Source: Escherichia coli
Lineage (GTDB): Bacteria; Pseudomonadota; Gammaproteobacteria; Enterobacterales; Enterobacteriaceae
Strand: one strand, 5' to 3'
Length of the DNA stretch: 64,000 bases
NCBI RefSeq assembly: GCF_011045215.1
Contig: NZ_CP049201.1
Made by a program: the position numbers and the translations under genes. This document shows, piece after piece, positions 50,507-58,703 of this stretch; the first letter of the stretch is position 1, and every line of letters starts with the position of its first letter. The notes beneath the pieces were generated by a model, which was not told where the DNA came from, ran no database searches, and worked only from the letters and a program-made list of their open reading frames with translations.

Positions 50507-51159
50507 TGAGTAATAAATATTGCCAGGCGCTGGTGGAACTGCGGAACAAACCAGCCCATGAACTGAAGGAAGTGGGCGATCAGTGGCGCACGCCGGACAA
50601 CATTTTCTGGGGAATTAACACCCTGTTTGGCCCGTTTGTTCTGGATCTGTTCACTGACGGTGATAACGCCAAATGTGCCGCGTATTACACGGCGGAAGAC
50701 AACGCGCTGGCGCATGACTGGTCAGAACGTCTTGCGGAGCTTAAAGGTGCTGCCTTTGGTAATCCCCCATACAGCCGCGCCAGTCAGCATGAGGGGCAAT
50801 ACATCACCGGCATGCGTTACATCATGAAACATGCCAGTGCCATGCGTGATAAGGGCGGGCGCTATGTTTTCCTGATCAAAGCTGCCACCAGCGAAGTGTG
50901 GTGGCCGGAAGATGCAGATCATATTGCTTTTATTCGCGGGCGTATTGGTTTTGAACTGCCTGTCTGGTTTATCCCGAAAGACGAGAAGCAGGTACCGACA
51001 GGAGCTTTTTTCGCTGGTGCTATTGCTGTTTTTGACAAGACCTGGAAGGGACCGGCAATCAGCTACATCGGGCGCGATGAACTTGAGGCATGTGGTGAGG
51101 CGTTTCTGGCGCAGGTTCGCCAGCAGGCGGAAAAACTGGTCAGGGAGATGGCGGCATGA
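50506..51159 (+). CDS. phage DNA N6-adenine methyltransferase (Dam-like)
   Basis: NPPY motif (FGNPPYSRA); start at MSNKYCQ. Confidence 0.75.
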   Translation: MSNKYCQALVELRNKPAHELKEVGDQWRTPDNIFWGINTLFGPFVLDLFTDGDNAKCAAYYTAEDNALAHDWSERLAELKGAAFGNPPYSRASQHEGQYITGMRYIMKHASAMRDKGGRYVFLIKAATSEVWWPEDADHIAFIRGRIGFELPVWFIPKDEKQVPTGAFFAGAIAVFDKTWKGPAISYIGRDELEACGEAFLAQVRQQAEKLVREMAA

Positions 51160-51482
51160 CGACGTTAACTCAATGCCAGCAGCAGGTGCTGGATATGCTG
51201 ATTTCTTATCAGAAAGAACGTGGCTTCCCGCCAACCAATCAGGAGGTGGCAACCATGCTGGGATACCGTTCGGTGAATGCAGCGGTGGAGCATCTTCGCG
51301 CACTGGAGAAAAAAGGCGTCATCACGATAAAGCGTGGCGTGGCCCGGGGGATAACGCTTCATACCGCGGTGAAGGACGACGACAGCGAGGCGGTCGGGAT
51401 TATCCGCGCACTGCTTGCCGGTGAGGAAAACGCAAGGCTGCGTGCAACCCACTGGTTACATGAGAGGGACCTGAAAGTATGA
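51156..51482 (+). CDS. LexA-like DNA-binding domain protein
   Basis: N-terminus resembles LexA winged helix (QQQVLDMLISYQKERGFPPTNQEVATMLGYRSVNAAVEHLRALEKKGVI). Confidence 0.6.
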   Translation: MTTLTQCQQQVLDMLISYQKERGFPPTNQEVATMLGYRSVNAAVEHLRALEKKGVITIKRGVARGITLHTAVKDDDSEAVGIIRALLAGEENARLRATHWLHERDLKV

Positions 51483-52686: not shown

Positions 52687-53682
52687 GTGACCGTGAGAGC
52701 ACTACTGACCCCTGAAATTGCCCCGCGTATGGGGATCGTATTGTTCAGACCAGGTTCAGAGCTGATGCCCCTGTTTATGCAGGGGCGTGTACTGCTGGAG
52801 CCTGAGCCGGAACGTTATTCATCTTTCGCCAGTGGTGCCGTTCCCGCGGCATCACAACCGCTGGCGGATGATCCTGCTGTTCGGGCCGTGTTCCGCAATG
52901 AGGCAGTGATCCGTCGTGCTGGTGGCGTGGAATGTCTTGAAAGCTGGTTACTTCGTGAAAAAGGCTGCCAGTGGCCTCATTCCGACTGGCACAGCGAGAA
53001 CATGACCACAATGCGACACGCTCCGGGCGCAATCCGTCTGTGCTGGCACTGTGATAACCAGCTGCGCGATCAGTTCACGGAACGGCTGGAATCAATGGCA
53101 ACGGATAACTGTGCCCGCTGGGTGTTGTCTGTTGTGCGTCGGGATCTCGGTTTTGATGATAGTCACGTTGTGACAATGCCGGAACTGTGCTGGTGGCTGA
53201 TTCGTAATGACCTGGCGGATGCCTTACCGGAAAGTGCAGCCCGTAAGGCACTGAGATTACCAAAGCCTGTTGTGCCGTCTGTCACCCGGGAAAGTGACCT
53301 TGTGCCTTCGGTTCCTGCCACCAGCATCATCCAGGATAAGGCAAAAAAGGTGCTGGCGCTGAAAGTGGATCCGGAGTCGCCGGAGTCTTTTATGTTACGC
53401 CCAAAACGTCGCCGCTGGGTTAATGAGAAGTACACGCGCTGGGTTAAGACACAGCCGTGTGCATGTTGTGGAAAGCCCGCTGATGATCCCCACCACCTGA
53501 TAGGCCACGGTCAGGGGGGAATGGGTACAAAAGCGCATGACCTCTTTGTGTTGCCTTTGTGCAGAAAGCATCACGACGAGCTGCATGCGGATACCGTGGC
53601 ATTTGAAGAGAAGTATGGCTCCCAGCTGGAGCTGATATTTCGTTTTATCGATCGTGCGCTGGCAATTGGCGTGCTGGCCTGA
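52687..53682 (+). CDS. phage protein, DUF968-like (Cys/His-rich)
   Basis: C-terminal CxxC...HH...PLCRKHHDELH pattern. Confidence 0.5.
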   Translation: MTVRALLTPEIAPRMGIVLFRPGSELMPLFMQGRVLLEPEPERYSSFASGAVPAASQPLADDPAVRAVFRNEAVIRRAGGVECLESWLLREKGCQWPHSDWHSENMTTMRHAPGAIRLCWHCDNQLRDQFTERLESMATDNCARWVLSVVRRDLGFDDSHVVTMPELCWWLIRNDLADALPESAARKALRLPKPVVPSVTRESDLVPSVPATSIIQDKAKKVLALKVDPESPESFMLRPKRRRWVNEKYTRWVKTQPCACCGKPADDPHHLIGHGQGGMGTKAHDLFVLPLCRKHHDELHADTVAFEEKYGSQLELIFRFIDRALAIGVLA

Positions 53683-53696
53683 TTTGGTGGAGAAAG

Positions 53697-54065
53697 TTGA
53701 TGCGTGATATTCAGATGGTTCTTGAGCGTTGGGGAGCATGGGCGGCGAGTGATAGTTCAGGCGTTGACTATTCACCTATAGCTGCTGGGTTTAAGGGACT
53801 TCTTCCCTATACCAGCAAGAAACGCTTGGCTTGTTCGGATAGTGATGCATTAATTATTGAAGGTTGTCTTGCTCGTCTAAAGCAAAAAAGACCTTATGAG
53901 CATTCGCTTCTTGTGGCACATTATTTATACAGAATATCCAAGCGTAAGATTGCAAAGGCGCGTGGAAAGGATGAGAAATTGATACGTATAGAAATACAGC
54001 TAGCCGAAGGATTTATTGATGGCTGCCTTTCCATGCTAGATCTAACATTAGATTTGGACGTTTAA
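53697..54065 (+). CDS. Q: late-gene antitermination protein Q
   Basis: 122 aa with LERWGAWA motif; positioned before the lysis genes. Confidence 0.65.
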   Translation: MMRDIQMVLERWGAWAASDSSGVDYSPIAAGFKGLLPYTSKKRLACSDSDALIIEGCLARLKQKRPYEHSLLVAHYLYRISKRKIAKARGKDEKLIRIEIQLAEGFIDGCLSMLDLTLDLDV

Positions 54066-54066
54066 T

Positions 54067-54091
54067 AATACGCCCCATGCAGGGGCGTATT
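54067..54091. terminator. bidirectional hairpin terminator between Q and the KAP NTPase gene
   Basis: Perfect inverted repeat aatacgcccc-atgca-ggggcgtatt flanked by A/T runs. Confidence 0.5.
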
Positions 54092-54093
54092 AT

Positions 54094-55425
54094 TTACTGG
54101 ATGAATGACATTTGATTAATATATTTTATCAATAACTCTCTGGGTGTAGTACTCCAAAAATTTAGGTGTTCATAATCAGTATAAACATTGGTGAATTTTT
54201 TAAGTTCTTCATCACTTTTAGGGGCAAATCGCTCATTAAGAGTAATACTGTCTTTAATTATTCCGAAGAATACAATAGATATTTCAGGAATTTGCGATCT
54301 TCTCTCATAAGAATAAGGTATTTCTTTTATGTTAAGCAGATCTGCTAAATGAGATATAGATTCTGCGGTAATTTCTTGTTTTAGTTTTTCCTTGTCACCA
54401 AAGCAATGTATGAAGACAGCTACGACAAAGATCTTATTTATTAAAGGATCACTGCTTTTGTACTCATCGTCGTTTAATAGTTGAAAAATGTTAAGATTGC
54501 GTGAAAAAGTTTGTGTTTCACGTAAGGATAAGTTGGTTCGTTGAATTAAATCACGGATAAATCTACCAGATAAACTATTAATTTCATTTAATGATTTTGT
54601 CTTGTCTACAAGGTAATTCCAATATATAACAGATGTTTTACATACGACGTGACCATTTATTAAACATGTGTCTGGAAGCGTGATGGTATATTTTATAAAC
54701 TTGTCAAGATACTTTTGTGAGTTAATACTATAACCATAAATATGATTTATCGATGCTTTTAATTGTTCTGTGTTTGTAACTAAAATAAAAAAGACATTAT
54801 TGATGTCAAAAATGTGTTTTATTGTTTCAATGACATTTGTTGAAAAACTCGGCTTACATCGGTCTAATTCATCAATTATAATTACTATCTTTTGACTTTC
54901 TGAAATGCTTTCGATGCAAGATTTAAGTGAATTTATGTTTTTCTCTGATTCCATATGGTCTTCAAGCAAATTTTCAATAGTCCCATCTATTGCTGCATTG
55001 CTTGCTTTCTTCATCGCATCTTGGAATTCTTCGGAAACTTCACTAGCCTCCTGTCGTAAAAACCAACCTGCACCAGCTTTTAGTACCGTTTTTAAACCAA
55101 AGCGAATTGCAGGAAGAGATCTCTTAATGAAGTGTTGTTTTTCTTCCTCAGGTAAAATGCTGGCAATTGCAGAGGTTATGAGAAGTAATGGAGATTCTGC
55201 ATGATCCCCTTTAAAGGCATCAATATAAACAACTTTAGATTCAGTTTCTTGCTCAATAATGAGATTTTTCAGTTTGATACTAAATTCTGTTTTCCCTGTT
55301 CCCCATGCGCCGTCTATTACCAGTGGTGAAATGTCTGCCTCTGGTTTTAGCAACTTGATGATATTTTCAGCGATGTTTCTGCGTTGGAACTCGTCACGTT
55401 CAGTGAAAGATAGTGTATCTAACAT
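54094..55425 (-). CDS. KAP-family P-loop NTPase (prophage cargo; candidate defense protein)
   Basis: 443 aa; Walker A DGAWGTGKT, Walker B IIIDELDR; AT-rich; antisense to the late operon. Confidence 0.75.
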   Translation of the reverse strand: MLDTLSFTERDEFQRRNIAENIIKLLKPEADISPLVIDGAWGTGKTEFSIKLKNLIIEQETESKVVYIDAFKGDHAESPLLLITSAIASILPEEEKQHFIKRSLPAIRFGLKTVLKAGAGWFLRQEASEVSEEFQDAMKKASNAAIDGTIENLLEDHMESEKNINSLKSCIESISESQKIVIIIDELDRCKPSFSTNVIETIKHIFDINNVFFILVTNTEQLKASINHIYGYSINSQKYLDKFIKYTITLPDTCLINGHVVCKTSVIYWNYLVDKTKSLNEINSLSGRFIRDLIQRTNLSLRETQTFSRNLNIFQLLNDDEYKSSDPLINKIFVVAVFIHCFGDKEKLKQEITAESISHLADLLNIKEIPYSYERRSQIPEISIVFFGIIKDSITLNERFAPKSDEELKKFTNVYTDYEHLNFWSTTPRELLIKYINQMSFIQ

Positions 55426-55487
55426 AATATAAACCTATTAACTCCTACAGTAAAAAACGAATAATACGACTTTGGGATTAAAAATCA

Positions 55488-55516
55488 TTAACGCGGTCCG
55501 CAAAAATTCTTGTAAT
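55488..55516 (+). promoter_or_regulatory. candidate late promoter (PR'-like)
   Basis: TTAACG -35 and TGTAAT -10 with 17-bp spacer, upstream of terminator and holin. Confidence 0.35.
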
Positions 55517-55548
55517 CTGTTAAGAGTGGTTACTTCGCCACACAGCTT

Positions 55549-55582
55549 AAACCCGCCGTCGAGCGGGTTTTGTCGTTTTTGT
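55549..55582 (+). terminator. intrinsic terminator (tR'-like, Q target)
   Basis: aacccgc-cgtcga-gcgggtt hairpin followed by ttttgtcgttttt. Confidence 0.45.
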
Positions 55583-55721
55583 TGCTGGGGATTCGTTGGG
55601 CCTGGCCTATCCAGCAGTTATCCATTGGTTCGGCTCTTTGACGTTTCCGCTTCTGATTTGCGGTACATGATGTTCCCTCAATTTGCACCTGCTGTATCAG
55701 CGAGGTGAGAGATAACTACAA

Positions 55722-56048
55722 ATGCCTCATAACCCAAATACTTGGCTGGACTTGGTCCAGAGCTGGTGGCGTGGAGACACACCGCTGGGCGCAGTGATTA
55801 TGTCGATTGTTATGGCTGGTTTGCGTATCGCCTACTTTGGTGGTGGTGGCGGCTGGAAGCGAAAAACGCTCGAGATTTTGCTCTGTGGCGCTCTGACTCT
55901 GACTTTTGCATCCGCGCTTGAGTATGTCGGATGGCCTAAATCACTTTCTGTTGCCATTGGTGGTGGCGTTGGGTTGATCGGTGTCGATGCTATTCGTGGG
56001 GCTGCAATGAGAGTAATCGGTAATAAGTTTGGTGGCTCTAAGGAGTAA
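55722..56048 (+). CDS. S: holin
   Basis: 108 aa, hydrophobic helices, charged C-terminus; directly upstream of endolysin. Confidence 0.6.
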   Translation: MPHNPNTWLDLVQSWWRGDTPLGAVIMSIVMAGLRIAYFGGGGGWKRKTLEILLCGALTLTFASALEYVGWPKSLSVAIGGGVGLIGVDAIRGAAMRVIGNKFGGSKE

Positions 56049-56051
56049 TTT

Positions 56052-56528
56052 ATGCAGGTACTAAATTCCCAGCGTAAAGCTTTCCTCGATATGGTGGCAT
56101 GGTCAGAAGGAACGGATAACGGGCGACAACCGACACGTAACCACGGTTATGATGTTATTGTTGGCGGCGAACTGTTCACTGATTACTCCGATCACCCTCG
56201 CAAACTTGTCACGCTAAACCCCAAACTCAAATCAACAGCCGCCGGGCGTTATCAGCTTCTTTCACGCTGGTGGGATGCTTACCGTAAACAGCTTGGTTTG
56301 AAAGACTTCTCCCCCAAAAGCCAGGACGCAGTGGCATTGCAGCAGATTAAAGAGCGTGGCGCTTTACCGATGATTGATCGCGGTGATATCCGTCAGGCTA
56401 TCGATCGTTGCAGCAATATCTGGGCGTCATTACCCGGCGCTGGTTACGGTCAGTATGAACATAAAATCGGTGACCTGATTGCCCGATTCAAAGAGGCTGG
56501 CGGGGTGGTAAATGAAGTTGAGCTATAA
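56052..56528 (+). CDS. R: endolysin (lambda R-like lytic transglycosylase)
   Basis: Matches lambda R as remembered (NSQRKAFLDMVAWSEGTDNGRQPTRNHGYDVIVGG...). Confidence 0.9.
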   Translation: MQVLNSQRKAFLDMVAWSEGTDNGRQPTRNHGYDVIVGGELFTDYSDHPRKLVTLNPKLKSTAAGRYQLLSRWWDAYRKQLGLKDFSPKSQDAVALQQIKERGALPMIDRGDIRQAIDRCSNIWASLPGAGYGQYEHKIGDLIARFKEAGGVVNEVEL

Positions 56529-56973: not shown

Positions 56974-57582
56974 AAGAGGCAGATTGATCGTGTTTTCGAA
57001 GTGTTATACCACGCCCGTTCTGTTAATTTGGCAAAATCTGTTCTGATGCAATGAGTATCGAAAGATTTATTGGACTGGTTGCTTTGGTTATCACTGTTAT
57101 CGCTGGAGTTGTTGGCCTAGGGCGTATCCGTGGCACTAGTAAAAGAAGAGGTTAAAACTGCTCTGTTATACACTGAAGTTAACGCAGCGGCTAAGCACTC
57201 AGCAGCAGGACACCGTGTAGAGGCAACGGAAGAGGCCAGAAATATACAGCAGACTATTAACCATATTCCTGGTGACTCTGTTGAGCGCGGTATGCATAAG
57301 AAATACAAACGTACAATTTGAAGTGGTATATTTTTCTTGTTAGTAGATGAATATAATATACCACACAGAATACGATATAATTATTGCTCATGCTTACCTA
57401 AATATGAAAAACAATAAAGTTATAAGTAGACAAGTGTTTTGTTACTTTTAATAATTGATGTGATGTATATATTAAGATTGAAAAATTTAATCATTCTTTC
57501 CACATATAAATTAAGTGGTTCCCTTAGCTTGTCATTTTTGATGATAAGTGAGAGAATATGAACATTATATGATGGAGATAAT

Positions 57583-57894
57583 ATGTCAAACATAAAAATC
57601 AAACAAGCTATTGAAAAGATTGCGGAGTTCAGAGCAGCATCTGCTGCGATGGCTGATGCTCACATGGTTCTTATTACAGAGCTATTGAACTCAATTGAGG
57701 ATATCCGCAAAAACTCTGGTGATAATCTCTCTGAGTTTGAAAAAGGACAGGTTGCTCTCTACATAAAAATTAGCCCAGTTGTGAAAAATGGAATTTCGAG
57801 TATTGAAAAATATAATGAGTCTTTAAGTTCAGACTATGTTGAGGCTATGAACTCCTTATCTAAAATTGCGGGAGGGAATTCAAATGTCGATTGA
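57583..57894 (+). CDS. hypothetical protein (first gene of AT-rich three-gene cargo operon)
   Basis: 103-aa ORF with RBS, predicted helical; AT-rich. Confidence 0.4.
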   Translation: MSNIKIKQAIEKIAEFRAASAAMADAHMVLITELLNSIEDIRKNSGDNLSEFEKGQVALYIKISPVVKNGISSIEKYNESLSSDYVEAMNSLSKIAGGNSNVD

Positions 57895-58270
57895 AGATGT
57901 TGGAAGCATCCTTGATAGATTAAAAGTAGCCAGGATCGAAAATAAAAAAATTGAAGAGTCAGCTGGAAAAGCAGAGGAAAATGCTGTTAACTCTAAGCAT
58001 ACTGATGGTAAAACACGAAGCGCCTTAACTATTACGTTTCTCTGGTTCTTTTTTTGCCTTCTTATTTTTAGCTGTCTTTTTGTTCTTTGGTATAATAATT
58101 CTGTTGTGAATTGGGCTTTAGAGTTAAAGAGCAAAGGTGTTGATGATTACGTTCAATATTTAAAGCCACTCGAGCTGGAAAAGGTATTGTCAATAATGAT
58201 TACTGCCCTTGGTACTTCATTAGGATTTATAATTGGGTATTATTTTAAGGATAAAGAAAATCATTCTTAA
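57884..58270 (+). CDS. hypothetical two-TM membrane protein
   Basis: Start MSIEDVG overlapping upstream stop; two hydrophobic helices (LTITFLWFFFCLLIFSCLFVLWY, VLSIMITALGTSLGFIIGYYF). Confidence 0.4.
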   Translation: MSIEDVGSILDRLKVARIENKKIEESAGKAEENAVNSKHTDGKTRSALTITFLWFFFCLLIFSCLFVLWYNNSVVNWALELKSKGVDDYVQYLKPLELEKVLSIMITALGTSLGFIIGYYFKDKENHS

Positions 58271-58315
58271 TATAGAGTTATCTCTAAAGATAACGAATTT
58301 TAATAGGAGGGTAGA

Positions 58316-58618
58316 ATGTCTGAACTGAATTATGAAGCAATAGGTCGCTGCAAAATCCTTAATGAAAAGATCAAAGATCTTCATGCTGAACGAATGAAAG
58401 CTATTGGTGATTTACGTACTGCTGTCTATGCCCTTCATCAGAAAGGGAATGTAAACCTCATCCCACCAGAAATTGTTGAATTCAACCCCCAATCGCTTAC
58501 ATCCCTTGTAGAGAAGGTTGGTCACTATGATGGTGAGCTGATGCGAGCTGTACATGAGTACAACAACTGGTGTGTAGAAGCAGGCGAGAAACCCGTAAAA
58601 CTTATAAAGCTAGACTGA
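58316..58618 (+). CDS. hypothetical protein
   Basis: 100-aa ORF with GGAGG RBS; followed by hairpin plus T-run at about 58630-58665. Confidence 0.4.
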   Translation: MSELNYEAIGRCKILNEKIKDLHAERMKAIGDLRTAVYALHQKGNVNLIPPEIVEFNPQSLTSLVEKVGHYDGELMRAVHEYNNWCVEAGEKPVKLIKLD

Positions 58619-58703
58619 AACAACAAATTTATGCAAATCATTAGCCTCGCACATGCGGGGCTTTTTTATGCGCACCACACATGCACATCAAAGAGAGTCT
58701 TCA

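Follow-up and report, generated by a model that had tools for sequence, protein, structure and literature searches.

The closest described counterpart of the locus considered here is the late-gene switch of phage 21 (6P18, 6P19, 6JNX; record OL657228), whose antiterminator Q21 belongs to the family PF06530 (Yin et al., 2022). In this phage the -35 hexamer of the late promoter PR' lies seven nt after the Q21 stop codon and is followed by the Q-binding element (QBE) in the spacer, the -10 hexamer, the transcription start 7 nt after the -10, a leader of ~50 nt, a terminator that ends at about +50 and the lysis genes. The present analysis concerns a 64,000-nt stretch of Escherichia coli DNA (hereafter the window; NCBI RefSeq assembly GCF_011045215.1, contig NZ_CP049201.1), which is part of a lambdoid prophage and encodes a late antiterminator, Q, of the same family and the same predicted fold together with a cassette of like order. 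Between the two, however, the window carries 1.46 kb of antisense cargo with the gene of a KAP-family P-loop NTPase (the KAP gene).

In lambda (6S RNA) and the Stx phages (StxS), PR' is a constitutive late promoter that is terminated just downstream, at tR', and read through once Q has been made, which is also how we read the present cassette, although the Q of lambda belongs to the unrelated family PF03589 (Yin et al., 2022). Accessory genes in the interval between Q and the holin gene S are likewise known. The stx cargo, however, is located downstream of tR' in sense orientation and depends on Q, whereas the cargo described here is located upstream of PR', runs antisense and would be independent of Q. 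A homology to the StxS small RNA was considered and dropped, as that cassette is a different one with a PR'-to-tR' leader of 258 nt compared to ~50 nt in the window.

A second counterpart is found in the prophage DLP12 (qsr') of E. coli K-12, where quuD, the gene of a PF06530 Q, is followed by one or more hairpins after its stop codon, antisense nmpC (interrupted by IS5), a leader matching that of the window in 38 of 39 nt, a terminator and essD, while the Q cluster (QuuD is 48% identical to the Q of the window), the spacer element (TTTACGTACGTAAA) and the cargo differ. A passage in a citing paper places the DLP12 lysis operon under the control of a phage Q-type antiterminator. The K-12 prophage Qin was not used as a second copy, as its annotated Q (ydfT) comprises ~250 aa and its layout is different. 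Lastly, the defence hotspots of P2 and P4 (Rousset et al., 2022, PMC9122126) and morons in general resemble our locus in their conserved flanks and their interchangeable, AT-rich and self-contained genes. The slot in the window, however, lies inside a regulatory cassette, between the gene of a regulator and its DNA target, and its contents show a near-strict antisense polarity. We found no description of a cargo slot between Q and PR' in the open-access literature.

From our point of view, the locus is in all likelihood a split late-gene switch, in which a Q of the Q21 family is followed by a self-contained antisense cargo and only then, 1.46 kb away, by the target cassette of Q itself. From left to right, the region contains a DUF968 gene, Q, a hairpin, the antisense open reading frame (ORF) of 443 aa, 296 bp of intergenic DNA, the holin gene S, an R-like endolysin ORF and the spanin gene Rz. 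The Q stop codon (54065) and the -35-like hexamer (55488) are separated by 1,422 nt, so that PR' does not follow immediately after Q, and promoter, leader and terminator form a compact cassette (55480–55582). The elements on which the argument turns are the following:

53700–54065, + strand: Q, late antiterminator gene of the Q21 family (121 aa; stop codon 54063–54065; full PF06530 profile)
54066–55479, no strand: AT-rich cargo module of ~1.41 kb, from the Q stop codon to about -45 of the late promoter
54067–54093, no strand: 13-bp hairpin at the convergent Q/KAP junction, probable terminator of the cargo gene, possibly in both directions
54094–55425, - strand: gene of a KAP-family P-loop NTPase, candidate anti-phage gene (443 aa, 1332 bp)
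55480–55493, + strand: A-tract (UP-like) and -35-like hexamer TTAACG (55488–55493)
55493–55506, + strand: GCGGTCCGC plus A5, Q-type-specific spacer element and candidate QBE
55513–55518, + strand: -10 hexamer TAATCT of the late promoter PR'
55518–55529, + strand: TGnTAAG(A/G)G-TGG motif around the start site, kept even in diverged leaders
55525, + strand: predicted start of the late transcript (+1, A), homologous to a K-12 start site mapped by Cappable-seq
55526–55541, + strand: 5' leader hairpin, +2 to +17, present in the minimum free energy and the centroid fold
55549–55582, + strand: tR'-like intrinsic terminator, with the stem-loop at 55549–55570 and a T-rich tail

An earlier note on this DNA had described a strong hairpin that adjoins the Q stop codon, a 1.3-kb antisense KAP gene behind it and a tR'-like hairpin with a T-run ahead of the holin gene, and had placed the cargo exactly between Q and the late promoter. 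Each of these elements was recovered, with the hairpin beginning 1 nt past the stop codon, the ORF matching the KAP_NTPase family (PF07693, E=6e-70) and the terminator being listed by a consensus scanner; the placement of the cargo agrees with the empty relatives, the other inserts at the same junctions, the geometry of PR'21 and the mapped K-12 start described below.

Filled and empty junctions between Q and PR'

Compared with phage genomes by megablast, the region has three kinds of neighbour, among them phages without cargo as well as Shigella phage SfII and phage cdtI. In PPyecE_EH1910, a homolog of 55480–55575 lies only a few bases past Q and the KAP gene is missing; 1720a-02 and PhiR49_2 are likewise devoid of cargo, as judged from their equally short match spans. 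In relatives without cargo the identical cassette starts 8–30 nt after the Q stop codon, and SfII and cdtI carry two unrelated antisense genes in the very same gap. Of 5,426 complete E. coli genomes, 41 contain the 2.9-kb region 53400–56300 at 95–99.9% identity, among them that of the enterotoxigenic strain H10407 (NC_017633.1:309353–312248). Strain VTB97420v likewise carries the locus.

Larger samples point in the same direction. A 39-nt leader block (55519–55557) is matched exactly in >120 IMG/VR contigs, and wherever the upstream DNA sufficed, a PF06530-type Q (38–100% identical) was found ahead of it, the block starting either 53–60 bp or 861–3020 bp past the end of the Q alignment. Among the 96 loci chosen by this leader sequence, 25 are empty and 71 carry cargo that falls into 23 groups. 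Since this first set had been selected by the leader, the loci were sampled again by the Q protein (80 loci with a Q 74–100% identical to that of the window, 78 of them with usable downstream DNA). All 78 carry GCGGTCCGC with at most one change, then 17 nt and then a leader beginning with G(T/C/A)TAAG; in six of them the junction is empty, with 27–46 bp between Q and the element, and in the other 72 it is occupied by 0.7–2.3 kb of cargo. The pooled sets comprise 186 loci and, by k-mer clustering, ~55 cargo groups with a GC content of 0.30–0.44, most of them unannotated, and about 50 of the 53 groups that have an ORF of at least 100 aa are predominantly antisense.

The two junctions are sharply defined. 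On the left, homology with relatives that have no cargo or another one ends at the Q stop codon, and on the right the cargo ends just before the A-tract, ~45 nt upstream of the start site. Across the window, the GC content falls from ~0.55 upstream to 0.26–0.41 over the KAP gene and recovers at ~55500. Being present in some and absent from other related phages and deviating in GC content (~0.30 vs. ~0.55), the cargo shows the patchy distribution and the composition of a moron.

Given that 72 of the 78 loci sampled by Q are filled, and that the Q frame of the empty loci extends a few codons into the A-tract, it can be imagined that the filled slot is the ancestral state, that the KAP gene hence is no insertion and that the empty junctions arose by deletion. 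However, the occurrence of ~55 unrelated AT-rich contents at identical junctions points to repeated replacement, and the canonical cassettes, those of phage 21 and lambda, are uninterrupted. We hold such a history to be unlikely, and it would leave the present architecture of the locus unchanged. Whatever its origin, the split cassette is the usual state in this Q subfamily, while the Q cassette of the textbooks is drawn as contiguous.

The Q protein and its candidate binding element

The Q of the window matches PF06530 over the full profile (positions 1–118; E=2e-51, 173 bits, cut-off 26), and Q21 itself scores 87 bits, above the Pfam threshold. Direct sequence similarity between the two is marginal (E=0.055, ~20% identity). 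When the AlphaFold2 model of Q (predicted local distance difference test 80, predicted template modelling score 0.71) was compared with the PDB, the best 11 matches were all chains of Q21, with template modelling scores of 0.63–0.70, followed by region 4 domains of extracytoplasmic function sigma factors. The protein is hence predicted to have a Q21-like fold. No CII-type site (TTGYN6TTGY) is present within the Q gene, which thus contains nothing resembling paQ.

At 70% identity, the Q proteins of the sampled loci fall into four clusters, each of which is accompanied by a spacer element of its own, namely GCGGTCCGC in the window type, GCGTACGC in the SfII type, ACGTACGT in the QuuD type and GGAATTCC in the fourth type. 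The Q cluster predicts the element in each of the 96 loci sampled by the leader block and in 182/182 loci of the pooled sets. Within the cluster of the window, the 10-nt sequence GCGGTCCGCA shows no change among 22 distinct promoter sequences, in contrast to the bases next to it, and the exact element GCGGTCCGC occurs only once in the whole window. The element takes the position of the QBE of phage 21, just as the terminator takes the place of the PR'21 terminator. From these patterns we regard GCGGTCCGC as a candidate QBE, to which Q would bind. As such, the four combinations of Q type and spacer element that occur in nature offer themselves for testing DNA recognition by this branch of Q proteins.

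One could object that the pairing reflects linkage only, that the palindrome is the operator of another regulator or functionless, and that Q reads the TGnTAAGAG-TGG motif or the leader RNA instead. Since no cargo type is common to different Q clusters, linkage alone could indeed yield the pairing, with Q, cargo and element being inherited together, and both the leader motif and the N-terminus of Q are conserved across all four clusters. It speaks against this explanation that 9–10 nt of the element stay invariant within a Q cluster while adjacent bases vary, that the most variable part of Q is its C-terminal helix-turn-helix region, and that the element lies where the QBE of phage 21 lies. 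We consider linkage as the sole cause of the pairing to be quite unlikely.

Late promoter, leader and terminator

The earlier note had read TTAACG (55488–55493) and TGTAAT (55511–55516), with a spacer of 17 bp, as the -35/-10 pair of the late promoter. Both hexamers are present and the comparison of loci backs a promoter at this place, but its -10 hexamer lies 2 nt further to the right. The original pair was not called by the consensus scanner, as its -10 has a G at the critical position 2. Across ~30 variants of the promoter, by contrast, a hexamer was found directly ahead of the leader block in which A2 and T6 are invariant, position 1 is T save for one C and the middle positions are free. 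According to this TAnnnT signature, the -10 spans 55513–55518 and transcription should begin at A55525. All variants also share, 5' of the spacer element, a stretch rich in A that leads into (C/T)TANCG.

The predicted position was fixed before any mapped transcription start site (TSS) was looked up. A published Cappable-seq TSS of K-12, U00096.2:576452 (+), corresponds to NC_000913.3:577229. This base is the homolog of 55525 and follows the -10 hexamer by 7 nt. We take the offset between the two K-12 records to be +777, derived from the essD coordinates and a neighbouring strong TSS, with an uncertainty of +/-1 nt. Assuming a set of ~16,500 TSS on both strands, a TSS would presumably fall within +/-1 nt by chance in ~0.5% of cases. 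The external mapping and the comparison matter since the region by itself contains promoter-like and terminator-like matches of the consensus scanner at chance frequency (8 vs. 7.1 and 3 vs. 2.3 expected from shuffles), so that on the window alone the promoter/terminator reading would stay unproven. A further plus-strand TSS in DLP12 (U00096.2:576081, score 90; genome position 576858, position 4359 of L124, i.e. NC_000913.3) adjoins the nmpC start codon, is aimed at PR'/essD and is far stronger than the PR' start.

Downstream of the start, the evidence for structure is uneven. The outer three pairs of the 5' leader hairpin are kept in 26–28 of 31 diverse leaders, in part with G-U substitutions, which is modest evidence, and RNAalifold returned a weak consensus for these leaders (-1.6 kcal/mol) with a weak formal covariation signal. 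The tR'-like hairpin (55549–55570, tail TGTCGTTTTT) is both listed by the scanner and predicted to fold, and its stem is maintained with changed pairs in relatives (CCCGC/GCGGG, CCTCGC/GCGGGG, CCCGT/ACGGG). Five diverged leaders of the same Q type (L145, L156, L164, L181 and L197) have no canonical hairpin with T-run within 66 nt of the start; these phages may have a terminator of a different type or one that has shifted in position. An Rfam scan of 53600–56100 (E<=1) returned no family, the supplement entries listed by Adams et al. (2021) contain no Term-seq end near the K-12 homolog of tR', and a text search of the paper on the prophage small RNA svsR found no link to PR'. A long-range helix between GnTAAG and CTTA(A/T) was not adopted, as two variant types were compensatory and more of them carried breaks, and as the helix would lie partly upstream of the mapped start.

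In phage 21, the pause element occupies +2 to +8, with TAAGCT at +2 to +7. The TGnTAAG(A/G)G of the window resembles this TAAGCT but spans -7 to +2 of the mapped start, with the conserved TAAGAG at -4 to +2, and the first twelve positions of the predicted transcript (+1 to +12) contain no NANNNT hexamer. Of the candidates picked by eye from the leader (TTACTT, TACTTC, CAGCTT, TAAACC), none keeps A2 and T6 across the variants and all were discarded.

These observations bear on the register of the promoter. If TAnnnT at 55513–55518 were the pause element, the -10 would be CAAAAA (55501–55506) and transcription would start near 55510–55514, ~12 nt further upstream. For such a register one could argue that the distance from the end of the QBE to the hexamer (11 nt) is close to the 12 nt between QBE and sigma-dependent pause element in phage 21, that no other pause element was found and that TAnnnT is what sigma region 2 reads. 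The only mapped K-12 start, however, follows the hexamer by 7 nt, with no start listed ahead of it, and the hexamer that adjoins the palindrome shows no consistent A2/T6 (CAAAAA, CATTTT, CAAATT), which leaves this register only a slim chance of being correct. That the cassette 55480–55582 is just a constitutive promoter with a terminator, whether as the gene of a small RNA or as a generic insulator, and that Q acts elsewhere or is defunct, is most improbable, since, in spite of the chance frequency of promoter and terminator matches in the window alone, the missing pause element and the missing Rfam match, the cassette follows all 78 sampled Qs whatever their cargo, its spacer element is a different one in each Q type, its layout equals that of PR'21, it directly precedes the lysis genes, and the stop codons of Q and KAP are 28 nt apart, a gap that is filled by the hairpin and leaves no room for another promoter.

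The split late-gene switch proposed above also has to be weighed against a number of observations that count against it. The loci were for the most part drawn from two samplings of IMG/VR, which overlap in their contigs and are phylogenetically related. The late start is mapped in the K-12 homolog rather than in this prophage, and the signal of the K-12 TSS is weak (relative read score 1.7 at a threshold of 1.5) and belongs to a locus with a Q of only 48% identity and a different spacer element. The candidate QBE is a single 9-bp palindrome, whereas the QBE of Q21 consists of two direct 8-bp repeats (ATTGAGCA/AATGAGCA), and no sigma-dependent pause element was recognised where phage 21 or lambda would lead one to expect it. 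To these can be added the possible linkage of Q type and element and, on the side of the cargo, two negative results of the consensus scanner. It did not list the hairpin after Q as a terminator on either strand, because the A/U-rich flanks are inside the stem and a clean T-run is absent, and neither the scanner nor reading of the sequence revealed a convincing promoter for KAP within the 54 bp that precede its start codon.

In a split switch, Q would have to find its site in trans across 1.46 kb, as is conceivable for a diffusible protein, and would then allow RNA polymerase starting at PR' to read through tR'. The Q of lambda reportedly acts preferentially in cis. If this also applies to the present Q, its cis preference might be slightly weakened by a filled slot.

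The cargo, its hairpin and its proposed expression

The KAP ORF matches the PADLOC profile PDC-S20 (E=9e-177) with residues 3–442 on profile positions 4–449 of 450, and less well PifA (1e-17) and QatA. Likeness to the latter two is confined to the NTPase/P-loop region, whereas PDC-S20, a candidate class set by genomic association, is matched over the full length. We regard the KAP gene as a defence candidate that may have anti-phage activity. In one locus (L127, IMG/VR 2537561620_000010) Q is 100% identical to that of the window and the distance from Q to the leader is 1 nt shorter (1452 vs. 1453 nt), and the longest ORF in the representative of its cargo group has only 214 aa, so that the KAP gene of this representative is probably frameshifted.

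The hairpin at 54067–54093 has the composition AATACGCCCC-ATGCA-GGGGCGTATT. Its predicted folding energy of -21.4/-21.5 kcal/mol on the two strands (z ~ -5.3) was equalled by none of 200 shuffles. Of the bidirectional function claimed earlier, the strong fold on both strands stands, while the termination, for which the scanner makes no call, is suggested by the structure and by its place; we think of the hairpin as a putative bidirectional terminator. Most other cargo types also open with a strong hairpin of their own directly after the Q stop codon. Such a hairpin would stop cargo transcripts from running antisense into Q and thereby protect Q from antisense RNA, which could be the reason why nearly every cargo brings one along. 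In a locus that is otherwise near-identical to the window (L120), the loop (54077–54083) reads ccccTGCATgggg, the reverse complement of the ccccATGCAgggg found here, a change that inversion or template switching at a perfect hairpin would be expected to produce. A promoter-like match in the end of Q (54042–54069) was set aside, as it is at chance level and would fire straight into the hairpin.

With its place upstream of PR' and its opposite orientation, the cargo would remain outside the Q-dependent late transcript. The insulation from late transcription postulated in the earlier note is consistent with this insofar as PR' fires away from the cargo, but it would be incomplete if early rightward transcription reads through past Q, unless the hairpin terminates it. 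During lytic growth, early rightward transcription past Q would collide with that of the cargo. In the lysogen, the cargo would be expressed from a promoter of its own, placed within the 54 bp that separate its start codon from the A-tract of PR'. The best candidate -10 of such a promoter is TATTAT on the minus strand. The sole minus-strand hit of the scanner near the KAP start (55454–55426) would initiate inside the ORF. The cargo should hence be on in lysogens and not be amplified at induction, which is the opposite of stx.

With regard to other cargos, candidates of PADLOC are matched by seven of the first 23 groups, and the remaining ones are unannotated, encode a porin or are NA37-like. 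Besides the KAP gene, the slot accommodates PDC-M68A (HNH nuclease), PDC-S42, PDC-M53A (the cargo of SfII), an NsnA-like protein, NA37-like proteins and the porin gene nmpC, whose long-known odd position in DLP12 is explained by the slot. One cargo combines an OLD/HEC-04-like ATPase with an ORF resembling cytosine-5 DNA methyltransferases, as judged from sequence motifs, and many cargo proteins have no match in Pfam or PADLOC. The 1.3-kb cargo of L005 and L054 (Q cluster 3) has no ORF of at least 80 aa on either strand, the longest comprising 62 aa; it could be decayed, or encode small proteins or an RNA.

All parts of the locus are of known kinds, namely a Q21-family antiterminator, a PR'/tR' cassette, a moron and a KAP NTPase. 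To our knowledge, what is new is that the cargo is placed ahead of PR' and in antisense, the generality of the slot and the Q-type-specific palindromic element. One can go further and suppose that throughout the QuuD-like branch the Q-PR' junction is an accessory slot of constrained polarity, in which each cargo is directed towards Q and has a terminal hairpin that shields Q, and in which the cargo is on in the lysogen, overrun by early rightward transcription in the lytic phase and part of a reservoir of defence genes, with the Qs reading palindromes that switch with their type. This wider generalisation is tentative, and we would sooner expect at least part of it to fail than all of it to hold. 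If true, dozens of unannotated defence candidates would reside in the slot and the mode of DNA recognition would be unlike that of the direct repeats of Q21. The flanks in any case suggest a simple rule for harvesting uncharacterised accessory and defence genes of prophages, with the stop codon of a PF06530 Q on the left and the spacer element, 17 nt and GnTAAG on the right.

The remaining features of the list lie to the right of the KAP start codon:

55461–55466, - strand: TATTAT, best candidate -10 of the cargo's own promoter, a weak proposal from reading the sequence
55722–56048, + strand: holin gene S, first late gene 3' of the cassette (PF05106, E=4.5e-25)
56052–56528, + strand: R-like endolysin ORF, after holin S

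In the matching E. coli genomes the endolysin gene is annotated as glycoside hydrolase family 24, and as family 104 in a few records. A second AT-rich island (57300–58630, GC content 0.23–0.40) is found between Rz and the HNH/terminase region and contains three sense-strand ORFs (57583–57894, 57866–58270 and 58316–58618), none of which has a Pfam match; it may represent a second cargo region within the late transcript. Lastly, the nin-like region harbours, at 51156–51482, the gene of a 108-aa protein that consists of a LexA DNA-binding domain alone (PF01726, 3e-19), without the peptidase domain, and has the gene of a putative DNA methyltransferase on one side and a RusA-like gene on the other, both assigned by sequence.

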